Origin: Marsupella aquatica
Taxonomy: Eukaryota > Plantae > Marchantiophyta
Assembly: GCA_973895155.1 (NCBI GenBank)
Contig: OZ316898.1
Span: 9,762,286 to 9,826,285, forward strand
Direction of reading: 5' to 3'
DNA: 64,000 nt
In this document: one piece after another, positions 3,649-64,000 of the stretch
Layout: each line of letters begins with the position of its first letter
How positions within the stretch are numbered: position 1 is the first letter of the stretch
Notes under the pieces: model-generated
Told to the model about the DNA's origin: nothing
Seen by the model: the letters and a program-made list of their open reading frames with translations, nothing else
Databases searched by the model: none
Made by a program: the position numbers and the translations under genes

Positions 3649-4293
3649 ATGAGTGATTCGGAAGAGATTTTTGAAGACATGGAACTTGAAGCACGAGGAT
3701 CACCGCGGCGGTTTGAAGTAGAGAGAGAGGAGCAGGAGGAAGAGCACGTGACACCAGTACCATCACCGGTGCGGCGTGTGGTGGAGGAAGCAGTTCTACT
3801 GCCGGAGCTCACGGTAGTGCCAAAGAAGAAGATGGGTATGTTCAAGCTTGGGGGACCCAAGTATGAAGTGACAAAGTATAATGGACGCTCTGACTACTTG
3901 CTTTGGGAGAAGTAGGTGAAGAGAGTGCTCTATGCTTCAGGGATGGGCCAACTGCTAAGCCCTCGTGAAGACGATGTTGATGAGAAACAATGGGACCGCA
4001 TGCAAAAGCAGGGAGTGTGGTGTGTTACACTCTATCTCATGCCTCCCATCATCAAGCAGTTGGGTGCACATAAGGACTGCATGTCCTTGTTTGCGGAATT
4101 GCAGAGCAAGTATCACCGTAAGGAGTTGTCGAATCGGCTCTATACTTCCTACAAACTGATGAGTTTCAGGATGAAGGAATCCGGTACAAAGTTGCAGGAC
4201 CATGTGGATGCTTTCAACAACATGGTCGTTGACTTGGAAAACCTTGGGAAGACTTTGAATGATGAGATAAAGGCTCTACAACTTCTCAGTTCA
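3649..4293 (+). pseudogene. Copia gag (UBN2-type), truncated, with an in-frame TAG at 3913-3915
   Basis: KYNGRSDYLLW...SNRLY..KLMSFRMKE..LQDHVDAFN..VVDLEN..KALQLLSS, typical copia gag. Confidence 0.85.
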
Positions 4294-5798
4294 TCAAGGA
4301 CAACAAAACTTGGGAGCTTGTCAAGCTACCTGAGGGACAACAAGTGATGGACAGCAAGTGGATATACAAGCTAAAGGATCAGTCCATAGGAGGTGGATCA
4401 AAGGTCTACAAGGCTAGGTTGGTAGCCAAAGGATTCACACAGGAAAAAGGTGTGGATTATAATGAGGTCTTCTCACCAGTTGCTAAGTACTCAACAATAC
4501 GGTTATTGTGTGTGCTTGTTGTAATGTTTGGTCTGCTGCTAGATCAGATGGATGTTGTCACAGCCTTCCTCTATGGCACCTTGAAAGAGGTGATCTTCAT
4601 GAGACAGCTGCTAGGTTTTGTGAAGAGAGGGCAAGAGAATTTGGTTTGCAGATTGCTGAGATCCTTGTACGGGTTGAAGCAGTCACCAAGACAGTGGAAT
4701 AAGCTGTTTGATGATTGGATTCATGCACAAGGCTTTCACAGGAGTGTGTTTGACCCATGTGTGTATCTTAAACCGGTGAAGAATGTTGTCTTTGGGTTAA
4801 TTGTTTTAGTACTTTATGTGGATGACATGCTTATTGCGGCCAAGGACAGGTCTGAGATTGTTAAGCTCAAGGCACTGCTAAGTGCAGGGTTTAAGATGAA
4901 AGACTTAGGGTCAGCTAAGAGGATTTTGGGTATGGAGATCACTAGGGACTTGGAGGCTGGCAAGCTATGGTTGACGCAGAGCAGTTATGCGAGGAAGGTA
5001 ATTGCAAGGTTCAACATGGGGGATAGCAAGCCAGTAAGTACCCCGTTGGCTCCACACTTCAAGTTGTCATCAGCATTTTGTCCTACGGATGAGACAGAGA
5101 AGGGGCTGATGTCAAAGGTTCCTTATGACAAGGCAGTGGGGAGTCTCATGTATTTTATGACCTGCACTAGACCCGATCTTGCCATGGCTATGGGCAAGGT
5201 GAGCAGGTACATGTCGAATCCAGGGAAGGTACATTGGGAAGCAATGAAGTGGATTATTCGGTACTTGAAGGGTACCATGGATCATGGTCTATTGTTTGAT
5301 GCACATGTTGATAATGTTAGATCATTGATGGGCTATGTAAATGCTGACTATGCACAGGATCTGGATCGGAGGAGGTCAACAACAGGTTGTGTGTTCACAC
5401 TAGGAGGTGGATGCATAAGTTGGAGGTCTACTCTGCAGAAGTGTATTGCTCAGTCTACTACAGAAGCGGAGTATATTGCAGCAGCGGAAGCAACAAAGGA
5501 AGCGATTTGGTTGGATAGACTGATCACTTAGATGGGATTGCCACAGGGGAATGTGAAGCTCCATTGTGATAGTCAGAGTGCGCTCCATCTTGCTGTGAAC
5601 CAGGTAATGGACAGCAGAGTGAAGCACATCGATGTTAGGTACCATTTTCTTCGGCAAGCTGTGTCTGATAATCAGTTTGAGCTAGTCAAGATTGACGGTA
5701 AACTCAACCCGGCTGACGCTTTTATCAAAGTGATTCCTTTGGAGAGTTTTTCTAGACATCGTGATGTGTTGCAGGTTTTGCAATTGCCTCACAAGTAG
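4294..5798 (+). pseudogene. Copia reverse transcriptase / RNase H with an in-frame TAG at 5529-5531
   Basis: YKARLVAKGF, QMDVVTAFL, SLYGLKQSPRQW, LYVDDML, STTEAEY, KHIDVRYHF motifs. Confidence 0.93.
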
Positions 5799-29369: not shown

Positions 29370-31570
29370 TAGCGACCGTTAGAAGGTGTTGAATCTCATT
29401 TACCCAGAGAAAGAATATGCTGCCCAAAATCTAGCGACTTGCTACCATCCGCCTTTACTAAACCTAAGGTCCTTGCATGCACGTACATCAAAAGTCACTT
29501 CAAGGGTCATTTGAGCTTTAAGGTGCACACGCTGATAACCTATTAGGTTTTTCTTTGCCACGCCGTTCCTGCCACTCCCTGGGGGTACAGCATACAATTT
29601 CACCACAGTACTTCCACTCCTGCTCCCCTCGTTCCTGACCATAACTTCTACACGAAAGCTCAAATTGCCACAAACACTCGCATCATCTTCAATAGGTGGG
29701 TCGGCATCTTCAAGACTGAAAAGTATCTCCCGCTGGGTACTACCTTTTGCTTTGTAGAACGAATCAAGCACAAAGAAGAAGCAGACTTAAAGCTGAATTT
29801 GAAAGAAGTATATGACAACCCATGCCCAAACGCAAATACAGGCTCTCCTGTATAGAAGCGGTAGCTACGGCCAGGATACCCAGCTGAGATATTGGGGCGC
29901 ATATTCATGATTGTCATTGGCACTGTTGGAAAAGACTCTGGATATTGGAAGCTTCCCTCCTGGGTTATAGTCTCCAAAAATTATCCGTGCTAGAGCCTGA
30001 CCACCGGCTTGTCCAGGGTATCCAGCCCAGATGATGCTTGATATGAAGGGGTCCTCTTTAGCAAATGCTACATCTACAGGACCACCTGAAACAACGACAA
30101 GCACAACCGGACCTTTGGCAACTTTGGCGACTTCAGATATGAGCTTTTCTTCATTGCCTGGCAGTAGTAGACTGGTTCGGTCCACACCTTCTACCTCCAT
30201 CGAGAGACTCAACCCCACCACAATGACAACTGCATCAGCTTCAGTTGCTGCAAATGCTGCGTCACTGAAATTTTCATCCTTGCAAAATATATCACTGCAT
30301 GCTGGCCGGTAGTGGATATTGCGAACGTAATCGGATAAACCTTGCAGCGGGTTTATCCCATTACGTGATATATATACAAGGAATTTCTGCATAGTTGCCA
30401 AGTAATCTATTCTCTAGGTCATTTGCACTTGGACTCAGAACAGCCAAGGAATGGGAATTCTCCCAGGACAGCGGCAGTGCACTTTTATCATTCTTAAGAA
30501 GCACAATGCTTTGAAGTGCAGCTTCTAATGCAAGGGTTTGATGCGCTTCGGTACAGACATCATTGACGCTAAGATGTCCGTATCTCTGGCTTTGAGGATC
30601 ACCGTCAAAAAGACCAAGCCGCATTAGCACCGCAAACATATTGCGTAGTGCAACATTCAGATCTGACTCTTTCAGCTTGCCCTGGCTCATAGCCAGTTCT
30701 GCATGATCTCGGTTATCCCACAATTGAGATCTAACCCTGCTAGCAAAGAGTCGGCCACAGCATCCTCCAACGTTTTGGAATAGGCTGGCTCATTGGTCAT
30801 ATCATACACCGTATCACAGTCTGAAACTATGTAACCTTCCAAACCCCAGTTCTCTCGGGCAGTTTCTGTGAGGAAACTGTAGCTGCCACACATGGGTACA
30901 CCGTTCACCCTGTTGTAAGAGCACATCAGACCACTGGCTTTGCCCTCTTGGATACAGCTCTTGAAGGGCGGATTAAATGTGTCCTCCATGTCTTGCTGTG
31001 TTAGAACAGCATTGAAGTGATCACGGTCATCATTACCCCATTTCTCAAGGTCATAAGCCGAGAAATGTTGCAACAAGTTGATGTTTTTAGCATAAAGCCA
31101 GGAAACGAACTGCTCGTTCCCCTCATGAGATCGTCATCTCTCTCTTGCATTCCTCTTACAAATGCAGCTGCGTAGTTGCTTGATAGAACCGGGTCCTCCC
31201 CAGGAGTTTCCTGGCCTCGTCCCCATCTCGGATCTCGAAAGATGTTCACAACTTCACATTGGGCGACCAGAAAGTTAGCCCAGTTTGACCCACATTGTAC
31301 ATTGCCTCGTCATTTGGCCGCCCCGTGGAAAGTTCGAACCATTTGTTGTCAAAGCGACACATACACAGGTGGACGCCAATCAATCAAATCCTCCTCATCC
31401 TGAAGTAATTCAGCCCGTTCTTGTCGATTGGACCAGAGAAGCTCCTGCGAGCCAGCAAGACAGCCTTTTGTGCTGCCTTTCACCTCGATCAAAGGTGAGT
31501 TGAGACACTGGAATGATCGGTTGATCGATTGAGTGACTAATGCAGCTCCTCATTGTATGTTGTATAAATT
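29370..31570 (-). pseudogene. GH3 beta-D-xylosidase/arabinofuranosidase (BXL-like) pseudogene, apparently intronless
   Basis: [65 protein letters not shown] and a C-terminal Fn3-like region; about six frameshifts; fragments abut with no intron-sized gaps. Confidence 0.88.
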
Positions 31571-35451: not shown

Positions 35452-37129
35452 ATTTTCAGTGTCTTTTCCCTGCCGCCGGCATTAGGCCATTCCGGACAAT
35501 TGGTCGCCACAGGTCATCTACATCGGGCTGCGGGCCCGGGGTATCCACATGGGACAGCAATCCCACATCGCCTATGTATACACATAGGCAAGCGCGACGG
35601 GGACACAATTTGAGGTTTAAGGGTCCTTTTTTTTCCGACGGTTTTTCGACGGTGACGGGTTTTCTCAGTCTTTATACATTTTGCACATTTTGGGTACTGT
35701 CACACAGCATGTCAGCAGACGAGCTGGGAGGTAGCAGCTCATCGCCACCAACGCCCAGGTACCACTTACGGAGTGATCCACGACCGTTGGTGCCCATTTC
35801 ATTGGAGTCTCGGCAATTTTGACGATGTCAGCAGCCATCAGCAGCACCCACACCACGCAACCCTTCTGCTACATTTGGCGGTCGCTTCACCACTACCCTG
35901 AAGCCTACTATTGCTTCTTTGCCCTTTACTCCTTCTGCATCACTGCTTGTTCCAGCTTCACCGACATACAGCATGGATGCCAGCCACTCATCTGGCCACA
36001 TTGAACGCTTCAGTGGGCGGCCAGGCACTGTTTCTTTACGTGAGTTCAAATCCACTTTCTACACTGTCATTTACGAATTGGAGTTGAAATACGGCAGCAA
36101 TTTCACCAATGCTTTTGCATTTAAGCAGCTAGCCAGGTATGTGCACCACGAGGCTTTGGATGTGTATGAGCAGCACTCTCAACGGCTGCTTGCTGTCACA
36201 CAATTGCCTAACCCTGCCTATGCCACTGCAATTGCGGCTGCCTCACAACTGGCATTACAGAATGCCATTGCAGCCCATGCTGCTGCTCCTGCCACTTCCC
36301 CTCCTACTCCAGTTCCCACCACTGCACCAGTTACTCCCACCATCTTGGCACAGGCTACATCAGGCATTTCTCCCACCATTGATTCCCCTGCCTTTGCGGA
36401 TCCAGTGGCTGAGTTTTTCCAGGTTCTTGAATTGGAATTCCAAATCAAGAGTGCTGACAAAATTATGCAGTTGGCCACCTTTGTGAGGCAGCGCGATGAA
36501 ACATTGAAGATGATGTATCGCCGGCTTCTCAAGCTGAAGGACACCCAGAGCATCACTGACCTGGAAGCTGCTCATCGCTATCTTCGCGCATTGGAGGGCA
36601 CATCAGCTCTCCATTCGCAAGTGTTGCAGCAAGTATTCTCAGAGTTTGGAGACAGCTACACCTTGCTCAATGTCTATGACACTGTTGAGAAACTTGAGTT
36701 GGCCCATGCACATTATGAGGCCAGTATTGCGCGTCCACCGCGATCCAGGTACCAGGCTGCTGCCCCTACAATGGCCCCCCCTTCCCGTGTGCCACAATAT
36801 GCTTCCAAGACCAAACCAGCACATGTTGCTTTCATGCTGTCATCTTGCAACTACTGTGGCAATCCTAATCACAAGGCTAATGATTGTGATATTGTTGCTG
36901 AGGACCTGTCTTGTGATTTTTGCGGGAAAGTGGGCCACTTGGAGGCAGTTTGTTTTGCCAAATTCCCAGAGAGGAAGCAGCTACGACAACAGGCCACTCA
37001 TCCTGCTCCTGTTTCCACTCCCCCACCAGCTAGGAGGGCTCATACTGCATCCGTTGCTCCTCCTTCCAATGGCAAAGCAACCAGTGCCACCAAATTGCCC
37101 AAGCAGCAACAGAAGCTACCCGCTCAGAA

Positions 37130-37767
37130 GGCCTCATTCACAATTGGACGACCCAAAAGGAACGTCACACTCAAAAGTGACCATAGTTTATTATGCTTTA
37201 GGACATCATTTGTAAGGTGTAATGAGATGATATGCAAAATTTGATGTACTATACTTAATAAACATCCTGTAGGTTGGTAACATTAATTAAACTATCTAGC
37301 ATTTGAGACTTTGAAGCTTTCCTTATATGTCCTTCAAAGATCGATAAAATGACTTGTCACGCAACTAGTCACATCATTTCAGCACTCGAAATGACTCTAA
37401 AACTTGCATTTTAGACAATGAAATTTTACCAAGGCATGCATACTAATAGAATAATCTTATATTTTAAAACTCAAATATTGACACACACTAAACCTTTATG
37501 TACAGGACAAAAATAATTAGTAATTTTGGCTTATTTAGGGCCATCAATAATAGGATCCCTTAAAAAAGTTAAAAACTTGATTTATCTACATGGTGAGGTA
37601 GGTTACACCATGTAAAATAGTCTTGTGAAAAAATTAGACTTAAATGTCTTGAGATAAAATCATGATGAAGCTTTTTCCATGTTATGAAAGTCATTTTTCA
37701 CTAAAAAAACATGTTTTTGAGTCCTAAAAGTGGTTCCTATGAGGTACACCCAATTGTGAATGAGGCC
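37130..37767. mobile_element. MITE-like insertion (638 bp, AT-rich) in gag
   Basis: Perfect 18-bp TIR GGCCTCATTCACAATTGG with TSD AGAA (alternatively 17-bp TIR with TSD CAGAAG); removing it restores the gag frame (PAQK-EAHTAQ). Confidence 0.92.
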
Positions 37768-39459
37768 AGAAGGAGGCTCACACTGCACAGGCAACTCAAC
37801 TCCAGTCTCTGACTCATGAGGTTGAGTCCCTACGTGCCCAACTTGCCAACATCAAAGGCAAGTCAACTACCTCTGCTGGTCCTTCTCAACCGGCTGGTCA
37901 CGTGCAACCCATCCCTGGCCCAGGCACCACTGACAGTTCAGCACCTCTACCCCGCTCTTTCTATGGCTTGCCATTTGATGCTCATATGGGTGAGTGTGTG
38001 CTGTCCTCTGCTCCATAGCCTGGCTTTACAGTAGACTTTTCAGATTCATTCTGCCCTTCCTATTTTGCTTACCAGCAGGCCCATGCTGCCTCCCGTATTG
38101 CTCCCACACGCCGCATTGTACAGGCTGATGGTCTTGCTGCTGGTCCTATGACTAGAGCCAGGGGCGCTCGGGCTGTCATGCCCCAATCTTTTCAGCCACT
38201 TACCCTTGCTGAAGAGCACACCTTGTTGGCGAGGGGGGAGGGAGTTGCAGCTACATCCATTCCACCACCAGGTGCTGCTGACATTTCATAGGGAGTTGTT
38301 TCTCCTGAGCTGCTTGAGTATTTCACCTCCGGTATGGCACAAAGGATTCTTACAACTCCACTTTTTAGTTGCCATGATTTACAACTGGATGCTAGAGCTA
38401 TCATCAGAGCGCTAGAGGGCTCACTGCATTCTTCATCAGCCCCTGTGACACCGGTTTTGGAGGTCCAATCTCATGTACATACTGGATCTTCTTCTTCTCC
38501 ATTACATGCTTCCACTGGTTTGGTTATCCCAGTACCAATTTCCAGTGGTAGAGATGACAGTATTGCTGCAGATTGTGTGACCAGAGCTACACTGGATTCT
38601 GGTCATGCTGCTCCATCTTTCCTGACTATGCTGTTGAGTGGAAAGACCGTGGACACTAACTCCCTTCACAAGGTACCTCATCATTTGCCAAAAGTGGTGC
38701 CTAGCGACAAGACTTCAGTTTCCACCACCATTGCCATTGTTGACAACAGGAATTCAGCGGTCAAGTTGGAGGGTCACACTCCTCAAGTGGTCATGCTGGA
38801 CACAGGCGCTCAACCAGTGATATTGGGCATTCAGTTTGCCAAGAAGATGGGACTACTGACTGATCATTTACAGCAATCCAGGTGGCACATTCGGACTGCT
38901 AGTGGCACTGTGGAGGATGTGCTGGGTGAGAGTTCTACTTTACTCACTCTCACTTTTAATGGAGGTACAGATCAGGAATTGCATTTCCCAGTCAGATGTT
39001 TGGTTACCAGTGCCACTACGTATGATGTGCTCATTGGCCAGGAGGCTTTGTTCCCACCAGGTTTTACCATTGACAATTGGCATGAGCATGCATACTACAG
39101 AGTTGATTGGCATACGGATGGCTCACACTTGGGCTACATTCCACTTGATTTGCATGGTGCCCATACACCTATGGCTCACCACTGTGTGTTGAAAGCAGTG
39201 CACACAGCTACCTATGTCAACCACCCATTGCAGGATTGGATTGAGGAGGATGATGATGAGGTGGCTACTGCACATGCTGCTGCACGTATAGCAGCACTTT
39301 CCAGCAACGTGGATCATCAACCAGAGGTGGTACAACGGCTCCAAGCAGCCCATGGACCTTTGGTGGCTGCATTGCGCAAATTTGAGGATCTTGGGCAGCA
39401 CAATGGCCAACCAATAGCCCCAATCTTGAGCGCACCCGTTACATGGACTCCTCCTTCAG

Positions 39460-40400
39460 ATGGCCTTATATTGCTTGAGCTTTTTGGTGGCATTTCTACA
39501 GGCCTGGAAGCTCTCCTACAGTCTGGCATGGTGGTGAAGCAGTACATCTATGTGGATATTGATCCAGGTGCAAGGCAAGTGGCTGAATCCCGTCTGCTGG
39601 AATTTTCAGAGCGATTTCCCCAACAGTTTCCACACAATGCATGGAAATCTGCATTTTCTTTCTTTCCTCCAGATATCCAGCTTGTCCAGCACCGGCACTT
39701 AACCCTTCTTGGCTCCCTTGATTTGATCATAGCTGGTTGGGAATGCCAAGGGTTTTCAGCTGCTGGTCACGGTGCTGGACTGCATGATTCTCGTTCTAGC
39801 CTTTTCACAGCATTGGTTCAGATTCTCACCTGGGCTCAATCCCTTTATCCTGCTGTTGGTTATATCATTGAGAATACTCCATCTCAATTTGACCAGCGTC
39901 CACAGGTCAAAGAGGATTTCAGTGTGGTCCAGCACTACTTGGGACCACCCCTTCTCATTGATGCAGTGCACTGTGGTTCTTATGCACATCGTCTTCGTAA
40001 CTTTTGGACTAACCTTGCACCACCTTCCTTGTTGGAGTTAGCTCTTCACCACACATCCAGGGACACTAACCTCACAGTGGACCAGATTTTGGATCCTGAC
40101 AGTTCTTGCCAACCAGTTACACGGCAAGAGCCAGCACCTTGGTTCCAGCCAATACCATTGGACAGCCCCGTGCTGCTTGGCCTACATTTGTATCCTTTCC
40201 AGGTGCACATGCCTTTCAGGGTGATGGTCCTGGCCTGGTTTATCAACATTCTACCGGTACTTGGGATGAACCTAGTCCTGAGGAGAGAGAACGGGCTATG
40301 GGCTTCCAATCCGGTACTATAGGTCACACCCAGATCACCAGGCTGGCCAGGAATGCTTTACTTGGCAGGGTAATGGATCTTAATGCTCTCACTTGGCTTC
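39460..40400 (+). other. DNMT3-like C5 cytosine methyltransferase domain within the polyprotein (1-bp frameshift at ~40146)
   Basis: Motif I LELFGGISTG, II YVDID, IV IIAGWECQGFS, VI IIENT, VIII IDA..SYAHRLRNFWTNL, IX ERERAMGF, X TRLARNALLGRVMD. Confidence 0.9.
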
Positions 40401-43400
40401 TGGTCACTTGCATCCTTTTTCAGATGTACATTCATCCAGCATCTGGAGTTCCAGCTCTACCACTCCATGGTGCTGCTACATGGCATCCCGACCAGGTGCA
40501 CTTACCTCTATTCAACACTCACCGCTTCAGTCCAAGTGTTGGGGGGGAGGAGGTCCCTTGTAATGTGGCTGATATTATTTTTGAGTTTCATGGTGTGGAC
40601 CAACCCAGATCAGCAGGTACAACAGGCCTTGGAGAGGCCTCATCACCTTATCAGCAGCATGCTAGCAGCTTGGACAGTGGTGAGGCTAGCACTTCTGGCT
40701 CTTCAAGTACGAGTACATCAGGTCCTATTCCTAGTGTTGCCAACTACACATTCATCATGGGCAACCACCTGAGTAAAAGACAGAAGGACCAGCTGCTGAA
40801 TTTGCTCCTCAAGCATGAGAATGTGTTTGCTTTCTCTATGAAGGACTTGGGTAAGTGCAAGACTATGCAGTTCTCCATTGAGTTGGCTGATGAAACACCT
40901 ATCTTCAGGCGGAGACACCGTTTGAGTAAGCATGAGTGGCAGCTGGTGGATGAGAGGTGCCAAGAGCTCTATGAAGCTGGTCTTATTCAGCCATCTACAT
41001 CAGATTTTGCAGCAGCTACAATGATGCCAACAAAGAAGGATTCCAGTGGATTGTGGACAGAGAAGAGCATGTGTGGGGACTACAGGCCACTGAACCTGGT
41101 CATACCCCAGGACAGGTACCCCATGCCACGGCCAGAGGAGCTATTTGACAGCATTGGAGACTCAGACATCTTCACTCTTGTGGATCTAAGGCAAGGCTTC
41201 AACCAGATTTTGCTGCTTGCAAAGGATCGCAAGAAAACAGCTTTCCATGGTAGTAACCAACTATGGGAGTGGTTGGTGATGCCATTTGGCTTGAAGAATG
41301 CGCCCATATTCTTTCAAAGAGTCATGGACCAGGTTCTTCAAGGTGCTGAGTTTCTGAAATGCTACATTGATGATGTGTTGGTCCACAGCAAAGGATTTGA
41401 CCAACATCTACTTGACCTTGAGGAGCTATTCATGAGGCTTAAGAAGGTGAACCTAAAGATACACCCCAAGAAGTGTGAATTTGCTGTCAGATCAGTAGTA
41501 TACCTTGGGCACCGCATTCTTCCAAATGGAACCATGGCTCACTGGGCCAAGGTGGTATCCATCTTGGAAATGCCCACTCCTACCGATGTTCACACTTTGA
41601 GGAGTTTTATTGGGTTGTGCAATTACTATCGGATCTACATCAAAGATTTCAACACCATTGCACACCCATTGTATGCTTTGTTGAAAAAGAATGTGACTTG
41701 GACATGGAGTACAGATGCTGAGGCAGCATTTGCCACTTTGAAGGAGAAGCTCTCAGAATACCCGGTGCTGAGAAGACCTGATTTCAGCAAGGTCTTTGTG
41801 CTCCACACAGATTGGAGTGCCCTTGGGATTGGTGCCATTCTGGGCCAGCATGATGAGGAAGGTAAAGAGTACGTCATTGCCCATGCATCCAGGAGCAACA
41901 ATCAGGCAGAGAGTCATTATTCTTCGTATGAGGGTGAATGCCTTGCTGTTGTGTGGGCTGTCATACATTACAGGCCCTACCTCTATGGGACCAGGTTTGT
42001 CCTCTACATCGACCACTAGCCCTTGAAGTGGTTGATGACCAACGACAAGCTTACTGGCAAGCTTGCTCGTTGGGCGCTCATACTCCAGGAGTATGATTTT
42101 GAGGTAATTCATAGGCCTGGTGTGACACATCAAAATGCTGACACTATGTCCCACAACCCTTTGATTGCCTCTGATGATTCCTCAGATACACGGCAGGATT
42201 TTGACCAGGTTTCCATCCTGCCTACATTTCATGCATCTACCTATCTTGCTTTGCTGCCATGCTACGTTGTTGACCAACCTGTGGTGGACATATGGGAGGA
42301 CAACGACACTCTGAGATTTTTGCGGCATGGGGAGTACCCCATACATGTTACTGCTGCCCAGAGAGACCGAATTCAGCAAAGGTCCAAGCGTTACTTGTGG
42401 AAGGGAGATCATCTCGTGCGCTGCTTGCCAGACAGGGAAGTGGTGGTTCCACCCATTCATGAGAGGGTTGGCCTTATCCGTAAGGTACATTCTGAGCTTG
42501 GTCATTTTGGCGTTAAGAGGACTTACAGCCTCTTGGTCCCTCATTATCATTGGAGAGGCATGCATGGCCAGGTTCGAGATGTTATTGCCCGGTGTGAACA
42601 GTGTGATAGGGCGAGGACTTCTTTCACATCTCGGCAACCCACACTTCATCCACTCCCTATTCAGGGCATGTTTTATCGCTGGTCATGTGATTTGGCTGGA
42701 GAATTACCCCTCACGTCTCGGGGTAATCTTTACATCATGATCATGATAGAGCATTTCTCCAAGTGGATAGAACTTGTGGCATTGCCGGATAAGACTCCCG
42801 TAGCACCAGCCAGGCATTCCTGCAACAAGTTCTTAGTCGCTTTGGAGCTTGTGCAGAATGTCTCACTGACCAGGGCTCAGAGTTTAGAGGAGAGTTCCAG
42901 GAGTTGCTTGATCAGGCCCTCATTGATCATCGCCGGACATCACGAGATCACCCACAGGCAGATGGCTTGGCAGAGCGCATGGTTCAGACATGCAAGAAGG
43001 GTCTCCAGAAGATTTGCCTCACCAAAAACAAGGAGGATTGGGACCTGGCCTTACCCTACATTGCCATGGGGTATAGGATGTCCAGACATGCATCACTGTC
43101 TAACTTTTCTCCCTACTTCTTGTTGTTTGGTCGTCACCCAGTTCCACCTTCTGCTATTGCTGCTCACATGCTTCAGGTGGTAGACTTGGATTCAACTGTG
43201 ACTTGGTCTGATGTGATCTCTGAGAGGGCTGCCCTATTCAGGAGGGTTATGCCCATGGCCATGGAGAATTTGGCCATCGCACAACACAGGGACACATTGC
43301 GTTATGCACACACACGAGGGGGCACTTTTCAGCCCAAGGTCAGGAAGTTTGAAGTGGGAGATTTTGTGTACTTGCAACGGCAAGCTAACGACACCCTGGA

Positions 43401-43577
43401 CACCTCTACCAGTCGTACTATTCTCAGGGTTAAAGCTATTCGACCGTCTGGAGTGCTAGAGTTACAAGGGGCAGATGGGCGCACAATTGCTGACAATGCC
43501 AAGAATTGCGCCCCTTGTCATCTGCCTAACCTGGATCCCACCATTGTGACTCCTACCTGGATTCCACCTGTGGACTA

Positions 43578-43725
43578 CCCTTGCAAAATGTGTTTGCAAA
43601 TTGATGATGCTGACCAGATGCTGCTGTGTGACAATTGCAATGGAGGGTACCATCTTTTCTGCCTTCGGCCTGAACTTACCCAGGTGCCAGAAGGGTTATG
43701 GTTTTGCCCTTCCTGTGCTCCACGT
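43578..43725 (+). other. PHD finger at the integrase C-terminus
   Basis: CKMC..DQMLLCDNCNGGYHLFCLRPELTQVPEGLWFCPSC, a canonical C4HC3 pattern. Confidence 0.92.
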
Positions 43726-44913
43726 GCTACCTGAATTTTCTTCAGCCCTCCTTTTGGCTGTGGTCTGGGGGGGATACAGAGGTTTACACCTCCACTACGT
43801 ACATACCACTTCATTTGCTTTTTCTTGGCACTTGTGAATGTGATTGAACTTTTTCTATGCATGTTGGTTGCTAGCAGCTTGCACATATGCCTTGCCGGTG
43901 ACTTGTATGTTTTTGATACACTATGGCTACGATACTATATGTCACGACAAAATGAGAGCTTAAGCTCAAGTTGGAGGGGCCTATTAATCAGGGGTCAACT
44001 AATGAAATTCATAGGATTCAGATGCGAATAAAATTAGATATATTCAAGTGATGTTAGCAAAAAAATTGAAGATTGTATATGCCTATTATTACCCATAATG
44101 CTTTGGTAACAGGATCTCAATTCAGTTGCCTGAGAGATTTTAATTGTGTACTCATTGATGATAATTATTTTTTGAGGGTTATCCTAGCACTCCTCTGAGA
44201 TTGTAATAACCTGGAGTGACCTCCCCATTGTGCTTAGTTAGCTTTGAACAAAGAAAGTGTGCTGCTAGTTTTTGTCTACAAATATGGATGTGTATTTGTG
44301 TAGTTTCGAAAGGTAAGGCCCATACTTGCTAAACTAACTACTGTACAGTCCCCAAAGGGTTGGGTTATAATCCCTGAGTTAGGGCATCCATTGGAAAGGG
44401 GTGCTTTGGTTCTAAACATCATTCTGTTGGTGCATGGCCATTCAGCCTCCTTGCGCTCTCTCCTTCTGGCACTCATTCTTTGGAAGAGCCTGTTTGATTG
44501 ATTTCTCAATTTGTTGGCAACTACAACAGAAGATTAGGTTGAACAATCTTAGCTCTATTAGTTACTAAGATTTGATATATTGACACATGTTCTGTCTGAA
44601 ATCACTAAAATGCCACACTTTCTTAGGGAACCATAATTCATCAAGTTTGGGGATAATCTATAGTAGAATTCACCATAAAGGTCTACTCACAGCTTATTCC
44701 ATAGACTAAAGTCATAAGTCATAGTTTCTTTGTTAACAGAAATTTTTAATGTTTAGATTATACTTATGAGTAATGGAACGTGCATGAGGAGTCTGGAACA
44801 AGGAGACATTCCTCTGCATACACATGGGTATTCACGCTATGAGAAAGTGCAACAATTCAATTCAGTGGTAATGGGGTGATGCCAATTGTTGTCTTGGTCG
44901 TGCATACAGCATC

Positions 44914-53347: not shown

Positions 53348-56300
53348 ATGGGAACCCTCGGCGCAGCAGCCGGCACGAAATGTCTTGTGAGCGCTGCTAC
53401 TGCTGCTGCAGGGTCGTCCGTTATTGGATCGGATGAGCACTTCTTTCTGAAATCTACAAGATCAAGTTTGCAAGCCTCAGAATTCGTGGGCCCTGTTTCT
53501 TTGAAGGGAATGAGTTCATTCTTAGGATCTTGGACGGAGCTCGGAAATCTCGCTAGAGAAAGGCGGTGCTGTGGCCTTCATTCTACCGCAGCTCAGTCAC
53601 AAAGATTAGAATATGGTACTCGCTCGAGAATCGTCGTCGGCCAGGTGCTGAAGGATTCAAAAAAGGATGATTTTCAAGAGCGCAATTTGCGTGGAGAGTC
53701 GTTAACCAGTAGAACAAGTTCCGGGAATGGCGGAATGGAGAATAGCTGTGGTAGTCGAGAAAGCAGCAGCGAAGAAGAAAAAGAAAAAGAAATAGATAGT
53801 CATCATGACGAGAGACTCAAATTTCGGATAGGGAGGAGAATGTTGTTAGGTGCAGTTTCTATTGGTCTATCCGCCATTTACTCTTCGTCTTCATCAGAAG
53901 GTGCTCGAGCTATGACCGACAGAGGGTTTAAACTCACCAAAGGTTCATGGTTTTTAGGAGATTCGGAGGCAGACTTGGGATCTGATGGGGAGAAGAGGGG
54001 GTTAGGTCCTGGAGAACAGGAGTCTCGAGTGTACGATGCTACAGTCTTGGGCGAACCTGTTGTAATCGGAAGTGATAATAAGGATCGAGTCTGGACTAGG
54101 CTCCTCGAGAATCGTGTCGTCTATTTAGGCGAGGCTGAGAATGTTGCAGGCACTGACGATAAGGTGTGTGAATGTCGGACATCAATCCCCGCTGCTTGAA
54201 TTTCTCTAAATTCTCTTAGGGAGGGACATACTAATGTTACTAAGGTTTTAGTATACACTTATTTCCAGCCGATCAGAAAACTGGAGGGATGTAGTGCAGG
54301 GCCCAGTGCCTTCCTGCGGCTTTCTTTCCTGCAATTTTCCGTCGTTTCCTTGCGAGTTTCATGAGTGAGCCTTCCAATACATCCAGGAACCTTGCAAAAA
54401 GGTTCTGCTTGATGAGTATAACAAGCGAACTGAACTACTGTAAATGTCAGTGTTTTTTCATTATGTGTGTAAAAAACAAAACGGACTATGCGCAAATTGA
54501 ATTGAATCAACTTTGAAGCTTCACGGTACCCTAAACAAACATAGGGATAGAATGCAAATCAGTGGATGACCAGGATCGAAGGCATGGAAACGACTCATGT
54601 TCTGAATTCCCATATTTGCATCTTAGATTGGTGCTTCCTCTCACATTATGTAGACTTTCCTTGGCAAACCGTGGAAAGAGTGGGAACCGACATACAGTCA
54701 TAAGCATTCTTGTGAAGAGGCTATGAAGATTTTCTCCATTTGAGTACAATCATCTAGCATGTAGATTTGGGACTATTGAAGAGCCATGCTGAATCTGAAG
54801 GAAGGTAGAATGAACATACTCATAAACCGAACACCCAGGGTGACAACAAAATTTGTATGTGTTTCTGAAATGGTACTCAGTGTTTGGAAGGGACTGGCAG
54901 TTGCTGGAGCTGGAGATTGTACAAAAGTTGAGAGATAAATGTTTTGAGCAGAAGCGGAGCATATCCATTGCCTTTGAAGCATTCCCTCGTCCATTGCAAG
55001 CACAGCTAAACGCCTATATGAGTCACAAGTAAGACATCTGCTCCGTGGCTTTCTCTGTGATAGTTTGTTGTGCAAGGAATCTGTTGTTGGCAAGTCATCT
55101 TGCTGCACACTGCAATGTGCACATGACCCGTGTGCTATTTATCGTCTTAATAACCGCAGCATATCTACAGCTGCTTGGGAAAGTCCTGAAATGTTCTGGA
55201 CAATTTAATTCGGCGTAACCTGCAGACATATTGTATTGCCGAATGTCGATGGCTCTGGATACAGTTGGGAGCATATTCTCAGAGATTGAGGCCAGATTTG
55301 TCTGTTGGCATGTCTATCAGGTTGACAGATGACGGATTAAGAGAGGTGGCTGTACAGCTGTCAGAAGAGACGTGGCTAGAATACCTGCCAATATTGCAGT
55401 ACTGCAAGAATAGTGGCGTCCGCTTAGTTGCATGTGGTGCACCTAAGGAGGTGCGTTGATGGCTATACTTTCCTTCCCAATGACCCTTTTCAACAGAATT
55501 TCCTTGTGTACCAGTTTCCAATGTGGCCTTACCCTAAGGACAGGTGAAAACATGCAAGAATCATGGGTTTTCTGTTTTTCAGTACAATGGTGACCTGTGA
55601 GTTGTGAGTTTGGCTGATCAATTCAATTGGAAGGTCCAGTCAACTGTGTGGGAAGCAAGCAGTTCCTTCGCAGGCCTTCCAAATCTATTCATTTAAAAGA
55701 GTTTGAGAATAGTCGTGAAGAGGTGATGTACCTTATTTCCCCAATTCACGAAATCCTTTGCCTTGCACAGGTTCTGCGCATTGTCCAGGCTGAAGGGGTG
55801 CAGGCTTTGAACAAAGAGGATAGGCAAAAGTACATTCCGCCTGCTGGTGGTGGCTATAAGTTCAAGTCCTCCCCACGAGACAATTCAGGGTTTCTAGACA
55901 GTTTACCGAATACATCTGGCCTTGTTGGTCCAGGACCGTATAGATTTGCACAGGCTCGAATTGTTGAAGATTACACAATGGCACAGGTTGTTGCTCAAAT
56001 CATATCAGAAGGAGGTGCAGTGGGATTACTAGTAGTTATCACAGGGGCTTCTCACGTGCAATACGGAGCAAGAGGTACAGGCATGCCAGCCTGGATTGCT
56101 AAGAACAAGGAGATGCAGAAGAGAACCCAAGCGGTTGTTTTACTCAATCCTGACAGGCAGCATCTTCGCAGTGAGGGAGATGTGCCAGAGGCTGACTTCT
56201 TATGGTATTCTGCGGCAAAGGTCTGCACAAGAAATTGTTTTGACCGAACAGAGGTTGCACGAGTCATGGGTGCTGCAGGAAGAAGGCGTGATGCTTTGCC

Positions 56301-58268
56301 TAAGGTTTGCTTCATATGCCGATAATCATTTTCACAGGAAGAATGATCTAGAGTAGTGTCATTGATTACATGTTTTCGTGCCCATAAGTAGTTCCCTCTT
56401 AACAATTGATTTGCTGACGGTCACATGCTAGGATTCTTGCCGTTCAATTCGGGGTGTGAGTTGGATACGAGACAGGTGTATAATCTTGGAATACTAAACC
56501 AGTCTAGGGTAACAGAGTTTTGCCCTTCTGCGTTAAGTTTGGAAAGATTCAAAAAAGTACTTTTGGAAAGTTTTCTGCCACCTCGAACATGCTCACACCA
56601 TAACGTGGCTGGAAGTTGCAACTTTTCGTGACGTGAGTTCTGTCTGTACTTGGGCAGGACCTTCAATTAGGACTGAAGCAAGGACTAGTTGCCCCTGAGG
56701 TTCTGGAAAGCTTTTTCGAGCTGGAGCAGAACCCAATAATGGCAGAGTTAACAGGTCGCTTCCAGGTCAGTGTTTCAAAGAAATCCTGTCAAAGCATGAG
56801 TTTGCACTCAGTTGTGGAGAGCATGACACGCTGAAATTTTTGTTTTTGAACTCAGTCAGATGAAGCAAGTTTTGTTTGACCACAATCTTTCGTGGTCTCA
56901 TTGACCTATTTGTTTAACTTCACAATGCAGGGTCTGCGTGAAAGATGGTTTGCGGATCCGCGCTTCTTAGAACGGCTTGCCATAGAGGAGACTATATCAA
57001 TAACAACAACTCTAATTGCCCAGTATGAACGGAGGGGAACTCGTTTCTGGGAAGAACTTGACTATGTTGCCACAGATACTATCCGAGGAGCTGTAGTCGA
57101 CTTCTTCACAGTGTGGCTACCTGCCCCAAGATTATCTTTTAGAGAGATTGACCCAAATGAGACATTTAATACCCTGGATAGCTTAAATGGTTTACTTGGA
57201 TCATTTCCGGACAATGCATTCCAACGACCTCAAGCCGGAGAGAACTGGGGCTTAGGTGAAAGAGTTGGAGGAATTCTTGTAGGTGGACTCAAGCTCTTTG
57301 GTGTTGGGGTCATTTCGTCCATAGGTACCCTGGCTGGTACCAACCTGGTTCTAAGTGCTCGTCAGGTGTTATCTCCTAAAGCCAGTGGAACTTCTCAAAA
57401 CAAGAGATCACCAATCCTGAAAACAGCCCTTGTCTATGGCTCATTTCTTGGGACATCTGCCAATCTAAGATACCAGGTCCACTTCTGACTTGGCCGGTGT
57501 TTGCATCTTGACTCGTCATCTTTCGTTTCTCCAGGATTGAAATGCCCTGCAAATATAGAGCTCTGAAGCTATCTTCTCCTGTGATGCAGGTTATCGCTGG
57601 TGTTGTAGAAAACTGGATAGCTGATTATTGGCTTGCCTCTCAACCTTTAGCTGGCAACTCCCTTTCGTTTGTAGCTCGTACAGCAAATTCATATTTTGGC
57701 ACTGCGGTAAATTCTTTCTCCAAACTCATTCTTCTATGCAGTACGTTTGGGCTCGTCGAGGGCTTTGTTTTGATTCTGACACTGCCATAGGGCTTTCTGT
57801 GCCATAGGGATAGCCGTTGGCACTTTCGGTTTTGTCAGTTTTGGACCTTCCTTTTGTTTCTTGGGAGGTCAATCGTTGTCTGTCTTGGAGACATAGCCGA
57901 GACGGCTTTATATCTGAAATGGGCTTAAAATAAAATCTTCATGGGCTACTTGTAATGCCTTGTGATCTAGTCAGATACATCTGCCTGTTCAGAAACGTCA
58001 AAATGTATGCCAAGTTTGACTGATATCACGTTCCTTGCAGCAATGGGTAGATCTGGCAAGATTTGCTGGCCTTCAAGCGCATAATGACGAGAGCGATTCA
58101 TCTTCTTCCAAACCAGCTTCGGAAGGACAGCGGGATGTCGGGAGCAATTCTGACGATGTGTCAACCTCAACATCATCGCCCATAACTCAGGACCCTGCCA
58201 GTACTTTTGGAGAAAAAGCGGGGAAAATAGATCAACTGAAAGAAAAAATAGAGGTACCGAAGACTTAG
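53348..58268 (+). CDS. RETICULATA-RELATED 5/6-like chloroplast protein (DUF399/ChaN-like plus DUF3411)
   Basis: Eight GT-AG exons (53348-54163, 54901-55028, 55321-55450, 55771-56304, 56658-56765, 56931-57475, 57590-57706, 58041-58268); [88 protein letters not shown]. Confidence 0.9.
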
Positions 58269-59385
58269 TACATCTCGTTACCAGATTTTTCTAGGTTTTC
58301 AAATTGCTGCAATTCTCCCAGTTACAATGTTACCGTGTAAGGGTATGACACTGCTGTTGGGTGAGATTGAAATTCATCATGCTTTAGTGTTCGATCGTGT
58401 TCTGCTGCGAGCTCCTCGTGAAGAGGGTTGATCTCCTTTAGTCTTAATGGAGTATTTATGGTCGGCCTTATTTCACTGGGATGCTTAGCTTTTCAACTTG
58501 TTATAGCATAGTTGTGTCCTATGGCAAGTCACTCATTTGATGAAATGGGGCTCCAGATTCTGATAGGTTTGTTAATGGATCAACTGAGTAAAGCACTTTT
58601 TCAGTAGGTCGGGTTTCCAAATTGGTGGTAAAGAAGGATATCTACTGTAGACCGAAAATCATTTTCGAGATATGAGAGACAGCCTTCGTACAATTCGAAA
58701 TGAGTTCCTAGTTTAGCGTGGCTCTAGTCTTCTCTGTTATAAATGTTGAAGGGGGTCCATATTGATCTGAAGTACTTGGATGATAGAGAAAGAATCAAGT
58801 ATTCTCTGTCGTCGATATCTGGTGTAAACACATTGATTTCACTGCTGTCATTATTCACCGGGAGCACTGTGTTCAGTCAATTTCCGAATTGCCATCGTGG
58901 CCCGATGCACTAGATTGGATGTCGTTGTTGAAGCAGCAATTGAAGAGAAAAGAATTTTGACGGTTCGTTTTAGTACTTTCATAAGCTTACATGATGACGC
59001 TTGGATTATATTGTCTATTGCAAACTAGAGTAATATCACTTGACGCACCTGGGGTGCGAGAGGATTTTTTACTAATATACTTGGAAGTGCAAAATTGAGG
59101 AAGATTCGAATCCCCTAAAATGTGTAACAATTGTCCCAGAAACGGAAACTTAAGTAACCAAACCAGGTCCGTGACCTTAGTCTCCCTACGACTTTGGTCA
59201 CAAGAAGACTAAACGAGCCTCAGTTATTTGTGAGCAGATAGTTAAGGACAATACAAAAAGGTTCTGCAGAACCCTGCATCGACAGCATGCATACTGTTGG
59301 TTTGTAGCAAATGGAGAAATCCAGTGTCATCAGCTTAAATGGACCTTTCGTCTCCGTCAGTGCAATTCACGACCCAAACGAAATG

Positions 59386-59660
59386 AACTTGGTCGTGAAG
59401 AGCCGAACTTTGCCATGGTCGTATGCTTAATAGAGAAGAAGACGAAGTTATTCTTTCTCAAGAACACGAACTGTCTATTTTTGACTAGTCATAATCATGC
59501 TCAAAGGGATACCTTCAAGCTCCAACTTGGTCGTGAAGAGCCGAACTTTGCCATGGTCTTATGCTTAATAGAGAAGACGAAGTTATTCTTTCTCAAGAAC
59601 ACGAACTGTCTATTTTTGACTAGTCATAATCATGCTCAAAGGGATACCTTCAAGCTCCAA
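59386..59660 (+). repeat. ~138-bp direct tandem duplication
   Basis: AACTTGGTCGTGAAGAGCC...CCTTCAAGCTCCAA at 59386 and 59524. Confidence 0.92.
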
Positions 59661-59804
59661 AGGGATCCCAAAATGTCTGAATAACCTTTGCTACTCTAAG
59701 TCATACGTTTAAAGGAATAATTTTAAAGGTCAAACGCGAGTGTTCTTTCATTCACTAGACTTCCTTTGTGCAGTGCTACTAACAAGTAACAGAATTCAAT
59801 GTCA

Positions 59805-60215
59805 TTCATGGGTATTGCCATTGGGAATAACCAATGCTTTTGGATTGTTTATAGCCTGGAAGACCCAAATTCAAGTCTCTTATTTCGCATCACCTGATAT
59901 TGCCACGGGGAATGAACATCTGTTTAGGATTGTTTTCAGACTCGGAGCACCAAGTTTGGATCAGTGGGCATTGCCATGGAGAATAAAGAATGCTTTTGGA
60001 TTGTTTATACACTTTGCGATGGGGAATGAACAATGTTTTGCGATTGTGTATATAGACTTGAAGTATCAGACTAAATCAAGTCTGTTACCTCGCATCAATG
60101 GGTATCATGAAGAATGTTGTTGGATTGTTTACAGACTTCAAGCCTCTTACCTCGCATTCATGGGCATCGCCATGGAGAATGCAAAATGCAAATGTTCTGT
60201 CTTGGATTGTTTATA
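59805..60215 (+). repeat. Degenerate tandem repeat (~6 units of roughly 45-85 bp)
   Basis: Recurrent TTGCCATGGRGAAT..TGCTTTTGGATTGTTTATAG motif. Confidence 0.6.
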
Positions 60216-61116
60216 GCTGATGTCTGTTCAGATGATTCTTCAGCTGCTTTTTGTATGCGTCTCGAACACCGGGGCATATACGTAGCTCCCCGATTTTTCC
60301 GGACCGCTGTTTAGCTGCAGGGCATGAACGACAACAAGAAATTCTCGCCAGAAAGTTAAGGATTGCCGGTTTCATCGAAGAGCCGGCGTTGTCAACACGT
60401 ATGAGGGTTGTCAATAAGTCGATCGGTTTTGCTCGTTTTCGCAATGCGCGTTTGCTTTGTTTTGTTGAAGAGGACGGATTTGACGATGGTGTATTGATTC
60501 GTCGAGGACTCGCGGTACAGAGCTTCCTGGGATTAATAGGGTGGTGCTTGATCGGGCTTTGAAGCTGATTGAGAATTCTGGCAAGGCAGTTACAGTCAGG
60601 GGAAGTACCACAGATGATGCGCGTGTGAAGTTTTCTATCTAGCTTCTGTGGGATTGATTGATTCCCTGATTACCTTGCGAGTTAGGGTTTGATTTGTTGG
60701 AGAGTGGTCGGTCAATTTTCTTGCACTAGACAATTGGCAATCCATTCAGGTGGACAATTCGTTCAGGTGAGCAGTTTGAGTGCAGTATTGTACGTGAGAA
60801 GCGATCCACTGTTGCAGCTGATGGTCATGCGGCAGACTATTGCACTGTGGAACGGTATGGCCTACTAACTTTCAAGGTGATGACTCTCAGACGCGTTTGG
60901 ATTGCTACTCGAGGAATAGAAAGGAGAAGAGAAGAGTCTTTCATTATATCTTACGCTCTCAAGAGTGTCGTCAATTGGACGGTTGATTGTACTATTTTTC
61001 ACTAAGCAATTTCAGGTGTCTGTATCCACTAAGCAACTTCAGGTGTCTGTATCCATTTCAATCCAAGTCCAGAATAAGCCGTCTGTAGAGGTCGCCAACG
61101 CCACCGGCGGTTGAAA

Positions 61117-62202
61117 ATGGGTAAAAACAAATCCAGTAAGCTGATAGATGAGAACATGCCCGTGAGAACTTTGAGATCCCCAACAGTGAAAGCGGTGGCC
61201 GAGCTGATCAAAGATGGCAAAGCACCTCGCATAGTCGTTCTCATGGGAGCTGGCGTGTCCACCTCCGCTGGAATCCCGGATTTCAGATCACCGAAAACTG
61301 GTCTGTACGCAAACTTGGCACGGCTCAACTTACCACATGCGGAGGCTGTGTTTGACATATCCTACTTTCGACAGAACCCTAATCCCTTCTATGCTCTAGC
61401 TCGGGAGGTATACCCTGGAAAACACAAACCAACTGTGGCTCACGCTTTTATCGCTCTGCTCGCCAAAAAGGGCCTTCTTCACATGCTCTTCACGCAGAAC
61501 ATCGATTGCCTTGAGACAGCGGCCGGGGTGCCGGCGGAGAAGATCATCCAAGCTCACGGAAGTTTTGCTACGCAGCGGTGTATTGACTGCAATAGTGCCT
61601 TCCCAGACGATCTCATGTTGTCAAATATCCAAAGTGGAGATGTGCCCCATTGCATCTTACCGGAATGTAATGGTTTGGTCAAGCCAGACATAGTTTTCTT
61701 CGGAGAAGCGTTGCCTAAGAGCTTCTTTCAGAACAGGCCTAAGATTGCACAGGCCAGTTTGGTGATCGTCATGGGCACTAGTCTTACCGTCCACCCATTC
61801 GCAACTTTACCTGAGTTTGCTCTAGATGGTGTCCCTCGGGTTTTGATCAATTTAGAGAGGGTAGGTGATTTGGGGAGCAGGGTGGATGATGTCTGCATCC
61901 TCTCGGAGTGTGATGCGGGGGTGAGGAGTTTGGCAGACGCTCTCGCATGGAGGGAAGAATTGGAAGCCCTATGGAAAGAGGTATCCGGTCAAGAGGCTGG
62001 TGGAGATGTTGCGGAACAGCTGCCCGACACCAGAACCAAGGACGAAATACTCGAAGATGAGATCGAGACCCTGACTCGAGAAGTGGATCACACCCTCAAG
62101 CTCTCGAAAGCCCATCAGCTGCATTTGGAGGATGATGTTCTTGCGAACGCTACCGAAGGCCCCTCAGGGCTATTTTCGGGGAAAACAGGAGGATCACTCT
62201 GA
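61117..62202 (+). CDS. NAD-dependent deacetylase, class I sirtuin (SIRT2/Hst2-like), intronless, fungal-like
   Basis: GAGVSTSAGIPDFRSP, FTQNID, AHGSF, CIDC..CILPEC zinc site, KPDIVFFGE, GTSL; intact 361-codon ORF. Confidence 0.93.
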   Translation: MGKNKSSKLIDENMPVRTLRSPTVKAVAELIKDGKAPRIVVLMGAGVSTSAGIPDFRSPKTGLYANLARLNLPHAEAVFDISYFRQNPNPFYALAREVYPGKHKPTVAHAFIALLAKKGLLHMLFTQNIDCLETAAGVPAEKIIQAHGSFATQRCIDCNSAFPDDLMLSNIQSGDVPHCILPECNGLVKPDIVFFGEALPKSFFQNRPKIAQASLVIVMGTSLTVHPFATLPEFALDGVPRVLINLERVGDLGSRVDDVCILSECDAGVRSLADALAWREELEALWKEVSGQEAGGDVAEQLPDTRTKDEILEDEIETLTREVDHTLKLSKAHQLHLEDDVLANATEGPSGLFSGKTGGSL

Positions 62203-62354
62203 ACTAAATAGGACCAGGAAAGAGTCAGTCTACTCAGACGAAGCTAGACTGAGAATACCGAAACATTGGAAAAGCTTCAAGTTCGATACCGGTGAAGACT
62301 TCATTACAATTTCATCGGTCCCCTCGAAGCAACTTTTTGATTTACATTCCCTGT

Positions 62355-63170
62355 TGTGATCTACAGGACTAGTAAGTCTTTGTTGTGTTGTGCTCTACAG
62401 GACTAATGAGTCTCTAGTTACAAACATGGAAACAGTAGGAAAAACTCCGAGATGAGCAATATTGGTCGAGATCGACAACTTCAGTACTATAGTGATCTAG
62501 AGGACTAGTGAGTCTTTGTTGTGTTGTGATCTACAGGACTAGTGAGTCTACAGTTACAAACATGGAAACAGCAGGAAACTCTCCGAGATGAGAAGTATTG
62601 GTCGAGATCGACAACTTCAGTACAATAGTGAACTACAGGGCTAGTGAGTTTTTGTTGTGTTGTGATCTACAGGACTTGTGAGTCTCTAGTTACAAACATG
62701 GAAACAGTAGGAAAATCTCCGAGATGAGCAATATTGGTCGAGATCGACAACTTCAGTACAATAGAGATCTAGAGGACTAGTGAGTCTTTGTTGTGTTGTG
62801 ATCGACAGGACTAGTGAGTCTACAGTTACAAACATGGAAACAGCAGGAAAATCTCCGAGATGAGAAATATTGGTCGAGATCGATAACTTCAGTACAATAG
62901 TGAACTACAGGACTAGTGAGTCTTTGTTGTGTTGTGATCTACACGGACTAGTGAGTCTCTAGTTACACACATGGAAACAATCGGTAAATCTCCGAGATGA
63001 GAAATATTGGTCGAGATCGACGACTTCAGTACAATAGTGATCTACAGGACCAGTGAGTCTTTGTTGTGATGTGATCTACAGGACAAGTGAGTCTCTAGTT
63101 ACAAATTTTGGAAACAGCAGGAAAATCTCCGAGATGAGAACATTGGTCCGAGATCGACAATTTTAGTACC
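62355..63170 (+). repeat. 136-bp tandem repeat, ~6 copies
   Basis: GAGATCGA anchor recurs at 136-137-bp spacing (ATCG at 62471, 62607, 62743, 62879, 63016, 63153). Confidence 0.95.
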
Positions 63171-64000
63171 ATATATTCGCATGGCTTGAGTAAAAGAGTG
63201 TATCCTTCTTACGTCATGGTTTATGACGAAGTTGATTCCTGATTGATATCTACCAGAAACTACAATCCGAATCTGATCATCCTGCAATGCCATGTTGGGG
63301 TGCATCATAGTCGATTTGCAAGTTTTTTTCCTTCATGTCATATGCTAGACAGCTCATTTCATGTCCAATTGACAAATAAACGACTGCGTTTTCCATCCAA
63401 TGTCTTGTCCAATCCAAGTTCCCAACTCGAATTCAATTCTTGTCGGGATAAGGTCCCATTGCTTTGGCAAACAATAGCCCTCTCACATTCATACAAAGCT
63501 GGTTACTAGACACCCTTAGGCATTGCTGAAAGAATAAGAACTTAGAAAGGATACTCTATGGTGCACACAGGACAAACAGGTATGGATGAATACGTTCACA
63601 GGACAAACACCTTGAGGAGGGCAGATATGAATCACAAGACAAACAGCTCATCACTGCCTGCTCTTGAAGGGATTGAGTAACCGTAAGGGGGGATGGGGGG
63701 TGAAGATGGCGAACACGAAAAAATTTACTTCTGCACGCCTCCCTTTTGAAGAGTACGAGGCACGGTCAGTCCAATTATCGCTGAGCTTCAACTCTGGCAA
63801 CGGATCAATAGTCGACCCTTCACCTGACTCCAGACAGAATCTCATGATTCAGCAATGTAAGTGCTCTCATGGTTCCGGACCGCCATTATCCATGCCCACT
63901 GTTTAGCCTTTTAGTTGAATAAGGAAACATTGGACTATTCTGCTTTGAAGGAACTCTGGAACGAAATTGGTGTAATACTATACTCACATTCGATATGAGC

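Follow-up and report, generated by a model that had tools for sequence, protein, structure and literature searches.

An intact Hst2-type sirtuin gene of probable Leotiomycete origin, apparently shared by two liverwort genera

Introduction

How does a sirtuin gene that resembles those of ascomycetes come to stand in a liverwort chromosome? Sirtuins bind NAD+ and an acyl-lysine and release nicotinamide and O-acyl-ADP-ribose. The genes so far described as passing from fungi to bryophytes mostly serve defence or metabolism. A sequence-only reading of the window, by which we mean the whole 64,000-nucleotide stretch of the Marsupella aquatica contig analysed here, proposed that an intact, intronless Hst2/SIRT2-type gene at 61117..62202 had passed from a fungus to the plant. 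Our follow-up favours, with a probability of about 0.9, an intact Hst2-type sirtuin nested in Leotiomycete proteins, which entered the common ancestor of Calypogeia and the window liverwort by one transfer of DNA and has likely been retained by selection, its predicted activity being that of an NAD-dependent lysine deacylase.

Results

On the plus strand, a single-exon open reading frame (ORF) runs from the ATG at 61117 to the TGA at 62200-62202, giving 361 codons without an internal stop in the translation. The protein matches the whole Pfam SIR2 profile (E=8e-58, profile positions 1-180) and carries the sirtuin motifs GAGVS at residue 44, PDFRS at 54, TQNID at 126, H147, KPDIVFFGE at 189 and GTSL at 220, together with an intact four-cysteine zinc site made up of C155 and C158 (CIDC, 155-158) and C179 and C184 (CILPEC, 179-184). 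We take H147 to be the catalytic base; the motif roles are presumed from family knowledge and agree with the alignment to human SIRT3. Because the SIR2 profile is covered in full and the closest solved structures are human SIRT3 (E=5e-79), SIRT2 and yeast Hst2 (E=2e-66), we assign the protein to class Ib (Hst2/SIRT2-type); the bit scores for SIRT2/3/Hst2 are 269/264/228, against 188/156/142 for SIRT1/Sir2 or prokaryotic sirtuins. The sequence-only reading had described an intact single-exon ORF with all catalytic and zinc motifs, and rightly so; the three protein stretches that it quoted recur letter for letter in the translation. Codons 1-341 align to the nearest fungal gene without a gap, so no intron is hidden inside the ORF. 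GC3, tried as a donor signature, proved uninformative (0.54 in the ORF, 0.47 in the nearest fungal gene, 0.36-0.42 in three exons of the host gene).

Where do the relatives of this protein lie? Among the 120 matches listed, the best is a Calypogeia fissa sirtuin (80% identity), followed by nine environmental proteins at 75-80%; the other named rows are all ascomycete, nearly all of them Leotiomycetes at 57-68%. No moss, Riccia or vascular-plant sirtuin appears among these 120 matches, and the same collection contains the RETICULATA-like proteins of these plants. Trees were built from subsets of 70, 33, 138 and 34 rows; representatives not covering residues 60-270 were left out of the 138-row tree, except two, and wider outgroups were drawn from 50% representatives, 10 of 150 representatives being named. 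In the 33-row mixture-model tree, the window protein, the C. fissa proteins and the environmental sequence P0019 form a clade with 100/99 support, placed inside the environmental clade (100/99, then 97/90) and within Leotiomycetes (90/83). With the richer outgroups of the 34-row tree, the plant clade (99/96) again falls inside the environmental clade (95/84), and fungal rows are the successive outgroups in both trees. The phylogeny that the sequence-only reading had called for therefore nests the plant copies in Leotiomycetes, with 99-100 support for the plant clade.

A green-algal class I clade (Micractinium, Scenedesmus, Helicosporidium; also Euglena) reaches 44-49% identity to the window sirtuin. 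Constrained topologies were judged by AU tests, which rejected the union of the plant copies with this clade (p=6e-8), their placement outside all fungi (p=2e-5, richer outgroups) and their grouping with Hyaloscypha, sampled as H. bicolor and H. variabilis only (p=2e-72). An earlier test of a position outside Pezizomycotina had given p=0.02, with only four distant outgroup rows.

Upstream of the sirtuin, on the plus strand at about 53348..58268, lies the host gene that serves as syntenic marker: an intron-containing RETICULATA-RELATED 5/6-like gene with ChaN and RETICULATA-like domains, recognised by its domains, spliced joints and homologues. It ends at 58268, 2.85 kb before the sirtuin ATG, and four of its GT..AG joints are spliced in sequencing run X6, in keeping with the intron-rich plant gene first placed at about 3 kb. 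At the amino-acid level, it is 88-89% identical to its Calypogeia fissa counterpart (two exons), 78-80% to that of Riccia and 61-69% to those of other plants. By these values, the host is a liverwort with a nearer relationship to Calypogeia than to Riccia, and distinct from C. fissa.

Calypogeia fissa, a member of the Jungermanniales, has two sirtuin copies, CAM6087292.1 and CAM6092809.1, in one protein cluster and 80% identical to the window protein. The former follows the RETICULATA-like CAM6087291.1, both on a contig of 41,678,886 bp, and the latter follows the RETICULATA-like CAM6092808.1, both on a contig of 24,099,576 bp. By the convention of record numbering, consecutive protein accessions normally stand for consecutive genes; the synteny was deduced at the level of protein records from accession order and equal-sized contigs. 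In a second liverwort genus, then, the sirtuin apparently has this plant gene as its neighbour, which supplies the orthologs whose presence the sequence-only reading had left to be checked. With the sirtuin apparently beside one and the same plant gene in both genera, one old uptake from an ascomycete, followed by retention, is the most likely history.

Six runs from four studies match the window stretch or part of it, and continuity was judged on X2 (possibly the assembly's own sample), X3, X5 and X6. Of the 30 window bins, all are covered by X2, X3 and X5 and 25 by X6. Contigs of X3, X5 and X6, which come from three separate studies, bridge the ORF to its 5' flank (60856-61315, 59958-61279 and ~60207 to 61687, respectively) and to its 3' flank (61820-62436, 62005-62429 and 61659 to ~63384), and the chimeric join with endophyte DNA that had been considered at the outset does not appear in them. 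Across X2, X3, X5 and X6, whose contigs are short, no single read or contig reaches from the host gene to the sirtuin. X6 represents a different organism, roughly 92% identical in the 3' half (41 differing letters and no gap over 61659-62203), and its 5' contig has 53 gap letters.

The flanks at 58300-64000, compared with 80 fungal loci, contain no fungal DNA or gene outside 61167-62108, and no gene was found in the 1.8 kb from the sirtuin to the end of the window. Two short stretches on the plus strand gave faint signals in shuffle tests. Behind the stop, 62203..62335 may hold weak, decayed traces of the fungal C-terminal tail: its DNA score is equalled by 33 of 2000 shuffles, and of its frames compared with nine fungal tails, one beats 500 of 500 shuffles while the others are reached by 10 and 313 of 500. 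Before the start, 61043..61081 is a possible, likewise weak, remnant of fungal 5' leader DNA, with a score that 5 of 1000 shuffles reach when 150 nt are tested and 21 of 300 when 600 nt are. The plus-strand DNA at 60207..61116 lies on one X6 contig with the ORF and is likely a long 5' leader of the sirtuin, contigs telling neither start nor strand. Shortly behind the stop, at 62356..63173, a repeat scan found a 136-bp tandem repeat (6 copies, 89% matches); it is largely skipped in the X6 contig and therefore likely expanded in the window lineage. Tandem duplications also occur upstream of the sirtuin, of 135 bp at 59386-59660 and of 27 bp at 61000-61055.

Other elements were seen elsewhere in the window. 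A Ty3/Gypsy-like element at 35823-43734 (protease, reverse transcriptase and integrase by eye) contains an ORF at 38292-40319 that matches C-5 DNA methylase (PF00145, E=2e-6), and its last ORF has a PHD-like cysteine finger at its end. On the minus strand at 29865-31133 lie pieces of a glycosyl hydrolase family 3 gene, in which few introns are visible and the frame is broken several times. A Ty1/Copia-like fragment, judged by eye to contain gag and reverse transcriptase, occupies 3916-5531.

On the donor side, the gene of the P0006 cluster, which belongs to the nine environmental proteins, was found on metagenome contigs L001-L003, of 5-18 kb, which are near-identical and represent one organism. 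This nearest fungal gene consists of one ORF of 457 codons; blastn aligns it gap-free to the window at 61167..62108 (plus strand), with 79.4% identity over 942 nt. On L002, a Vps64 gene lies nine kb from Hst2 and best matches Leotiomycetes (77-78%), and in four Pseudogymnoascus genomes that occur in both searches the two genes have locus tags that follow each other directly. This linkage identifies the L002 copy as the fungus's own Hst2 locus. The Hst2 tree weakly favours a donor close to Pseudogymnoascus and Claussenomyces and not within Helotiales (85/49 to 91/93); the Vps64 tree places it weakly with Pseudogymnoascus (85/72), whereas raw Vps64 similarity favours Helotiales instead. The donor may have been a Leotiomycete from outside Helotiales that grew in or on liverworts, a placement that these trees support weakly. 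Mniaecia would be a candidate, presumably. Hyaloscypha ericae is described as a symbiont of such liverworts in PMC7062687, which lists C. fissa as colonised by ascomycetes.

Has the gene been maintained since? The window protein and both C. fissa copies have 16 residues in common that are absent from the nine nearest fungal proteins. Differences between window and C. fissa fall in 9 of 130 fungus-invariant columns, defined among 118 fungal-type homologues, versus 52 of 203 others (p=1e-5). The dN/dS check suggested in the sequence-only reading gave 0.10 between window and L002 (dS about 1.2) and 0.06 for the core, values that include the fungal branch. Five window residues (P22, M43, V98, T134 and Q145) have changed at positions that are near-invariant in fungi, so some relaxation is possible.

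The ends of the protein have changed more. A fungal tail of roughly 95 aa is gone from all plant-clade copies, which stop differently, at 361, 382, 393 and 340 aa. A PTS1-like C-terminal tripeptide occurs in 64 of 118 fungal-type rows, with eight of the nine nearest fungal proteins ending in SHL, and in no plant-clade copy; the start MGxxxS/T is present in 113 of the 118 rows and in the window protein, and not in C. fissa. Reading the tripeptide as PTS1 and giving meaning to the MGxxxS/T start are assumptions on our part. Across P0003-P0121, most filamentous-ascomycete Hst2 rows start with MGxxxS and over half end PTS1-like, and no paper on either feature of these proteins surfaced in the literature searched. 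P0019, on a 1206-bp JGI contig, is a divergent sirtuin of 340 aa that falls within the plant clade; it may represent a third liverwort lineage, and in the ESM Atlas it meets only ascomycete-dominated SIR2 clusters.

Hints of transcription come from X6, the contigs of another organism. No run is on record as RNA and X6, available as contigs only, was taken as RNA by guess, which fits the spliced joints of the host gene that it contains.

Discussion

The evidence assembled here points to an ascomycete-type Hst2 gene carried from fungus to plant, as first proposed: best matches, trees, AU tests and the C. fissa neighbourhood all speak for it. In the history we favour, a Leotiomycete gene would have been taken up as DNA, once, by the ancestor of the window liverwort and Calypogeia. 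Consecutive accessions suggest that its insertion downstream of the RETICULATA-like gene predates the separation of the two lineages, after which the roughly 95-aa fungal tail would have been lost and the gene retained by selection. In the 33- and 34-row trees, the branch leading to the window protein alone measures 0.10-0.12 and exceeds the stem of the plant clade (0.06-0.08), so the transfer likely took place shortly before that split.

But is the gene part of the plant at all? A fungal endophyte's DNA wrongly joined into the plant assembly would be in keeping with the colonisation of leafy liverworts, C. fissa included, by ascomycetes (PMC7062687), with the want of any one piece covering both host gene and sirtuin, and with a GC3 above that of the three host exons. 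The RETICULATA-like/sirtuin pair, seen twice in an independent C. fissa genome, is a strong argument against contamination, and the 80% likeness of window and C. fissa copies within one clade, flanks free of fungal genes against 80 loci and the contigs of three studies that join the ORF to its flanks make such an artefact extremely unlikely. Vertical inheritance, in which some liverworts would have kept a native green-lineage class I sirtuin, draws on green algae that retain such enzymes (Micractinium, Scenedesmus, Helicosporidium; Table 1 of PMC3599600), and the sequence-only reading had rightly warned of them. However, the algal proteins form a separate clade whose union with the plant copies is rejected, are far less similar to the window sirtuin than the fungal clade (44-49% versus 75-80%) and are without the fungal C-terminal helix; on the sampled rows this history is refuted, and we leave it almost no probability. 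Two independent transfers, or one from plant to fungus, would find a foothold in P0019, which sits in the plant clade on a long branch and could be a fungal row. Both are very unlikely given the same neighbour gene in both liverworts, the 16 derived residues common to the liverwort copies, the Leotiomycete Vps64 linkage and fungal tail retained by the fungal gene, and the fungal rows standing as successive outgroups.

The remaining alternatives accept a real transfer and differ in its route or its outcome. Lack of introns had been read as fitting passage through cDNA, and a retrocopy of spliced mRNA would account for the intronless window sirtuin, for the intron near codon 43-56 in many ascomycete Hst2 genes (as matches split there show) and for a clear fungal DNA match confined to the coding stretch. 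This part of the sequence-only reading did not hold: the nearest fungal gene is itself intronless in its coding part on the genomic contigs L001-L003, so the missing introns are no evidence for a cDNA route. Moreover, 10 of 39 fungal Hst2 loci of at least 5 kb are uninterrupted by an intron, with others split near codons 43-56, and each of the nine near relatives, all of metagenome origin, is one ORF of full length. By eye, neither a poly-A remnant behind the stop nor a target-site duplication was seen at the sirtuin, and the event is too old for one to be expected. A retrocopy is unlikely, and from the gene structures DNA transfer seems the simpler reading. Could the gene instead be a near-neutral passenger, truly transferred and now of little or no function? 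The different stop at which each copy lost its tail and plant branches (0.09-0.35) longer than those of the fungal sisters (0.05-0.11) in the 33-row tree would suit such a fate, but frames and catalytic motifs are intact in all four plant-clade proteins over ~0.2-0.25 changes per site, and changes avoid the invariant columns (p=1e-5). We consider a passenger improbable and retention by selection the better account.

What would the enzyme do? Yeast Hst2 is mainly cytoplasmic and shuttles. Beauveria SirT2/Hst2 occurs in both compartments and was assayed on H4K16 acetylation (PMC8950411). By analogy with yeast Hst2 and its fungal relatives, the liverwort protein is predicted to act on acetyl- or acyl-lysine in cytosol and nucleus. 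Table 1 of PMC3599600, which includes no liverwort, lists SIRT2-type enzymes in Ostreococcus and Micromonas and no class I sirtuin for Physcomitrella or flowering plants; on this table and on recall rests the notion that land plants lack class I. Judged by sequence, the liverworts with this sirtuin likely gained a predicted enzyme class that is apparently missing from other land plants. A bolder picture, tentative and in our view somewhat more likely wrong than right, is that leafy liverworts regained from a Leotiomycete partner the class I sirtuin lost by land plants, shed its fungal targeting tail and employ the enzyme as a functional NAD-sensing deacylase, possibly toward colonising ascomycetes.

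The case matters for several reasons. At least two liverwort lineages have retained in intact form a conserved regulatory enzyme whose class is known from green algae and not from the land plants of the liverwort-free Table 1 of PMC3599600. The case is also clean and datable: there is one insertion site, the donor-side gene matches at 79% of nucleotides, and C. fissa has kept both its copies. It points to an uncultured Leotiomycete lineage, rather than to the known symbiont Hyaloscypha, as the fungus with which leafy liverworts were once intimately associated, and it makes possible a direct test of the role of a class I sirtuin in a land plant.

Finally, we would like to place the liverwort sirtuin beside known systems. 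Like yeast Hst2, human SIRT2-SIRT3 (class Ib) and Beauveria SirT2/Hst2, the window protein has a SIR2 domain with all motifs; unlike its fungal sisters, it resides in a land plant and is without the long acidic tail and the terminal tripeptide. The native plant sirtuins SRT1 (class IV) and SRT2 (class II) belong to the same superfamily with the same predicted chemistry and are set apart by class rather than by direct comparison, while the green-algal class I sirtuins, also of this superfamily, group apart from the window sirtuin. Fungus-to-bryophyte transfer is already well known (PMC12513842, PMC12454661), and the sirtuin is a further example. The bryophyte catalogue of Dong et al. 2025 comprises 1,809 transferred families, with frequent lineage-specific transfers and few introns, and the liverwort sirtuin satisfies the same filters (PMC12513842). 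Its main text contains 0 mentions of sirtuin, SIR2, Calypogeia or Jungermanni-, and one small supplement is likewise silent; Supplementary Data 8-11 may list the gene. No liverwort sirtuin is reported as transferred in the literature searched, a scope that takes in the main text of this largest catalogue but not its data tables. A close parallel lies in the NAS genes that mosses obtained from fungi and in the NAS of microbial origin in Blasia, which document microbe-to-bryophyte transfer (PMC12454661). Like these, the sirtuin is confined to one lineage, flanked by plant genes and a member of a family reacquired from a new donor. However, NAS is a metabolic enzyme of metal uptake, with several transfers and a tested function (PMC12454661), whereas the liverwort sirtuin is a protein-modifying enzyme with one transfer and a predicted function.
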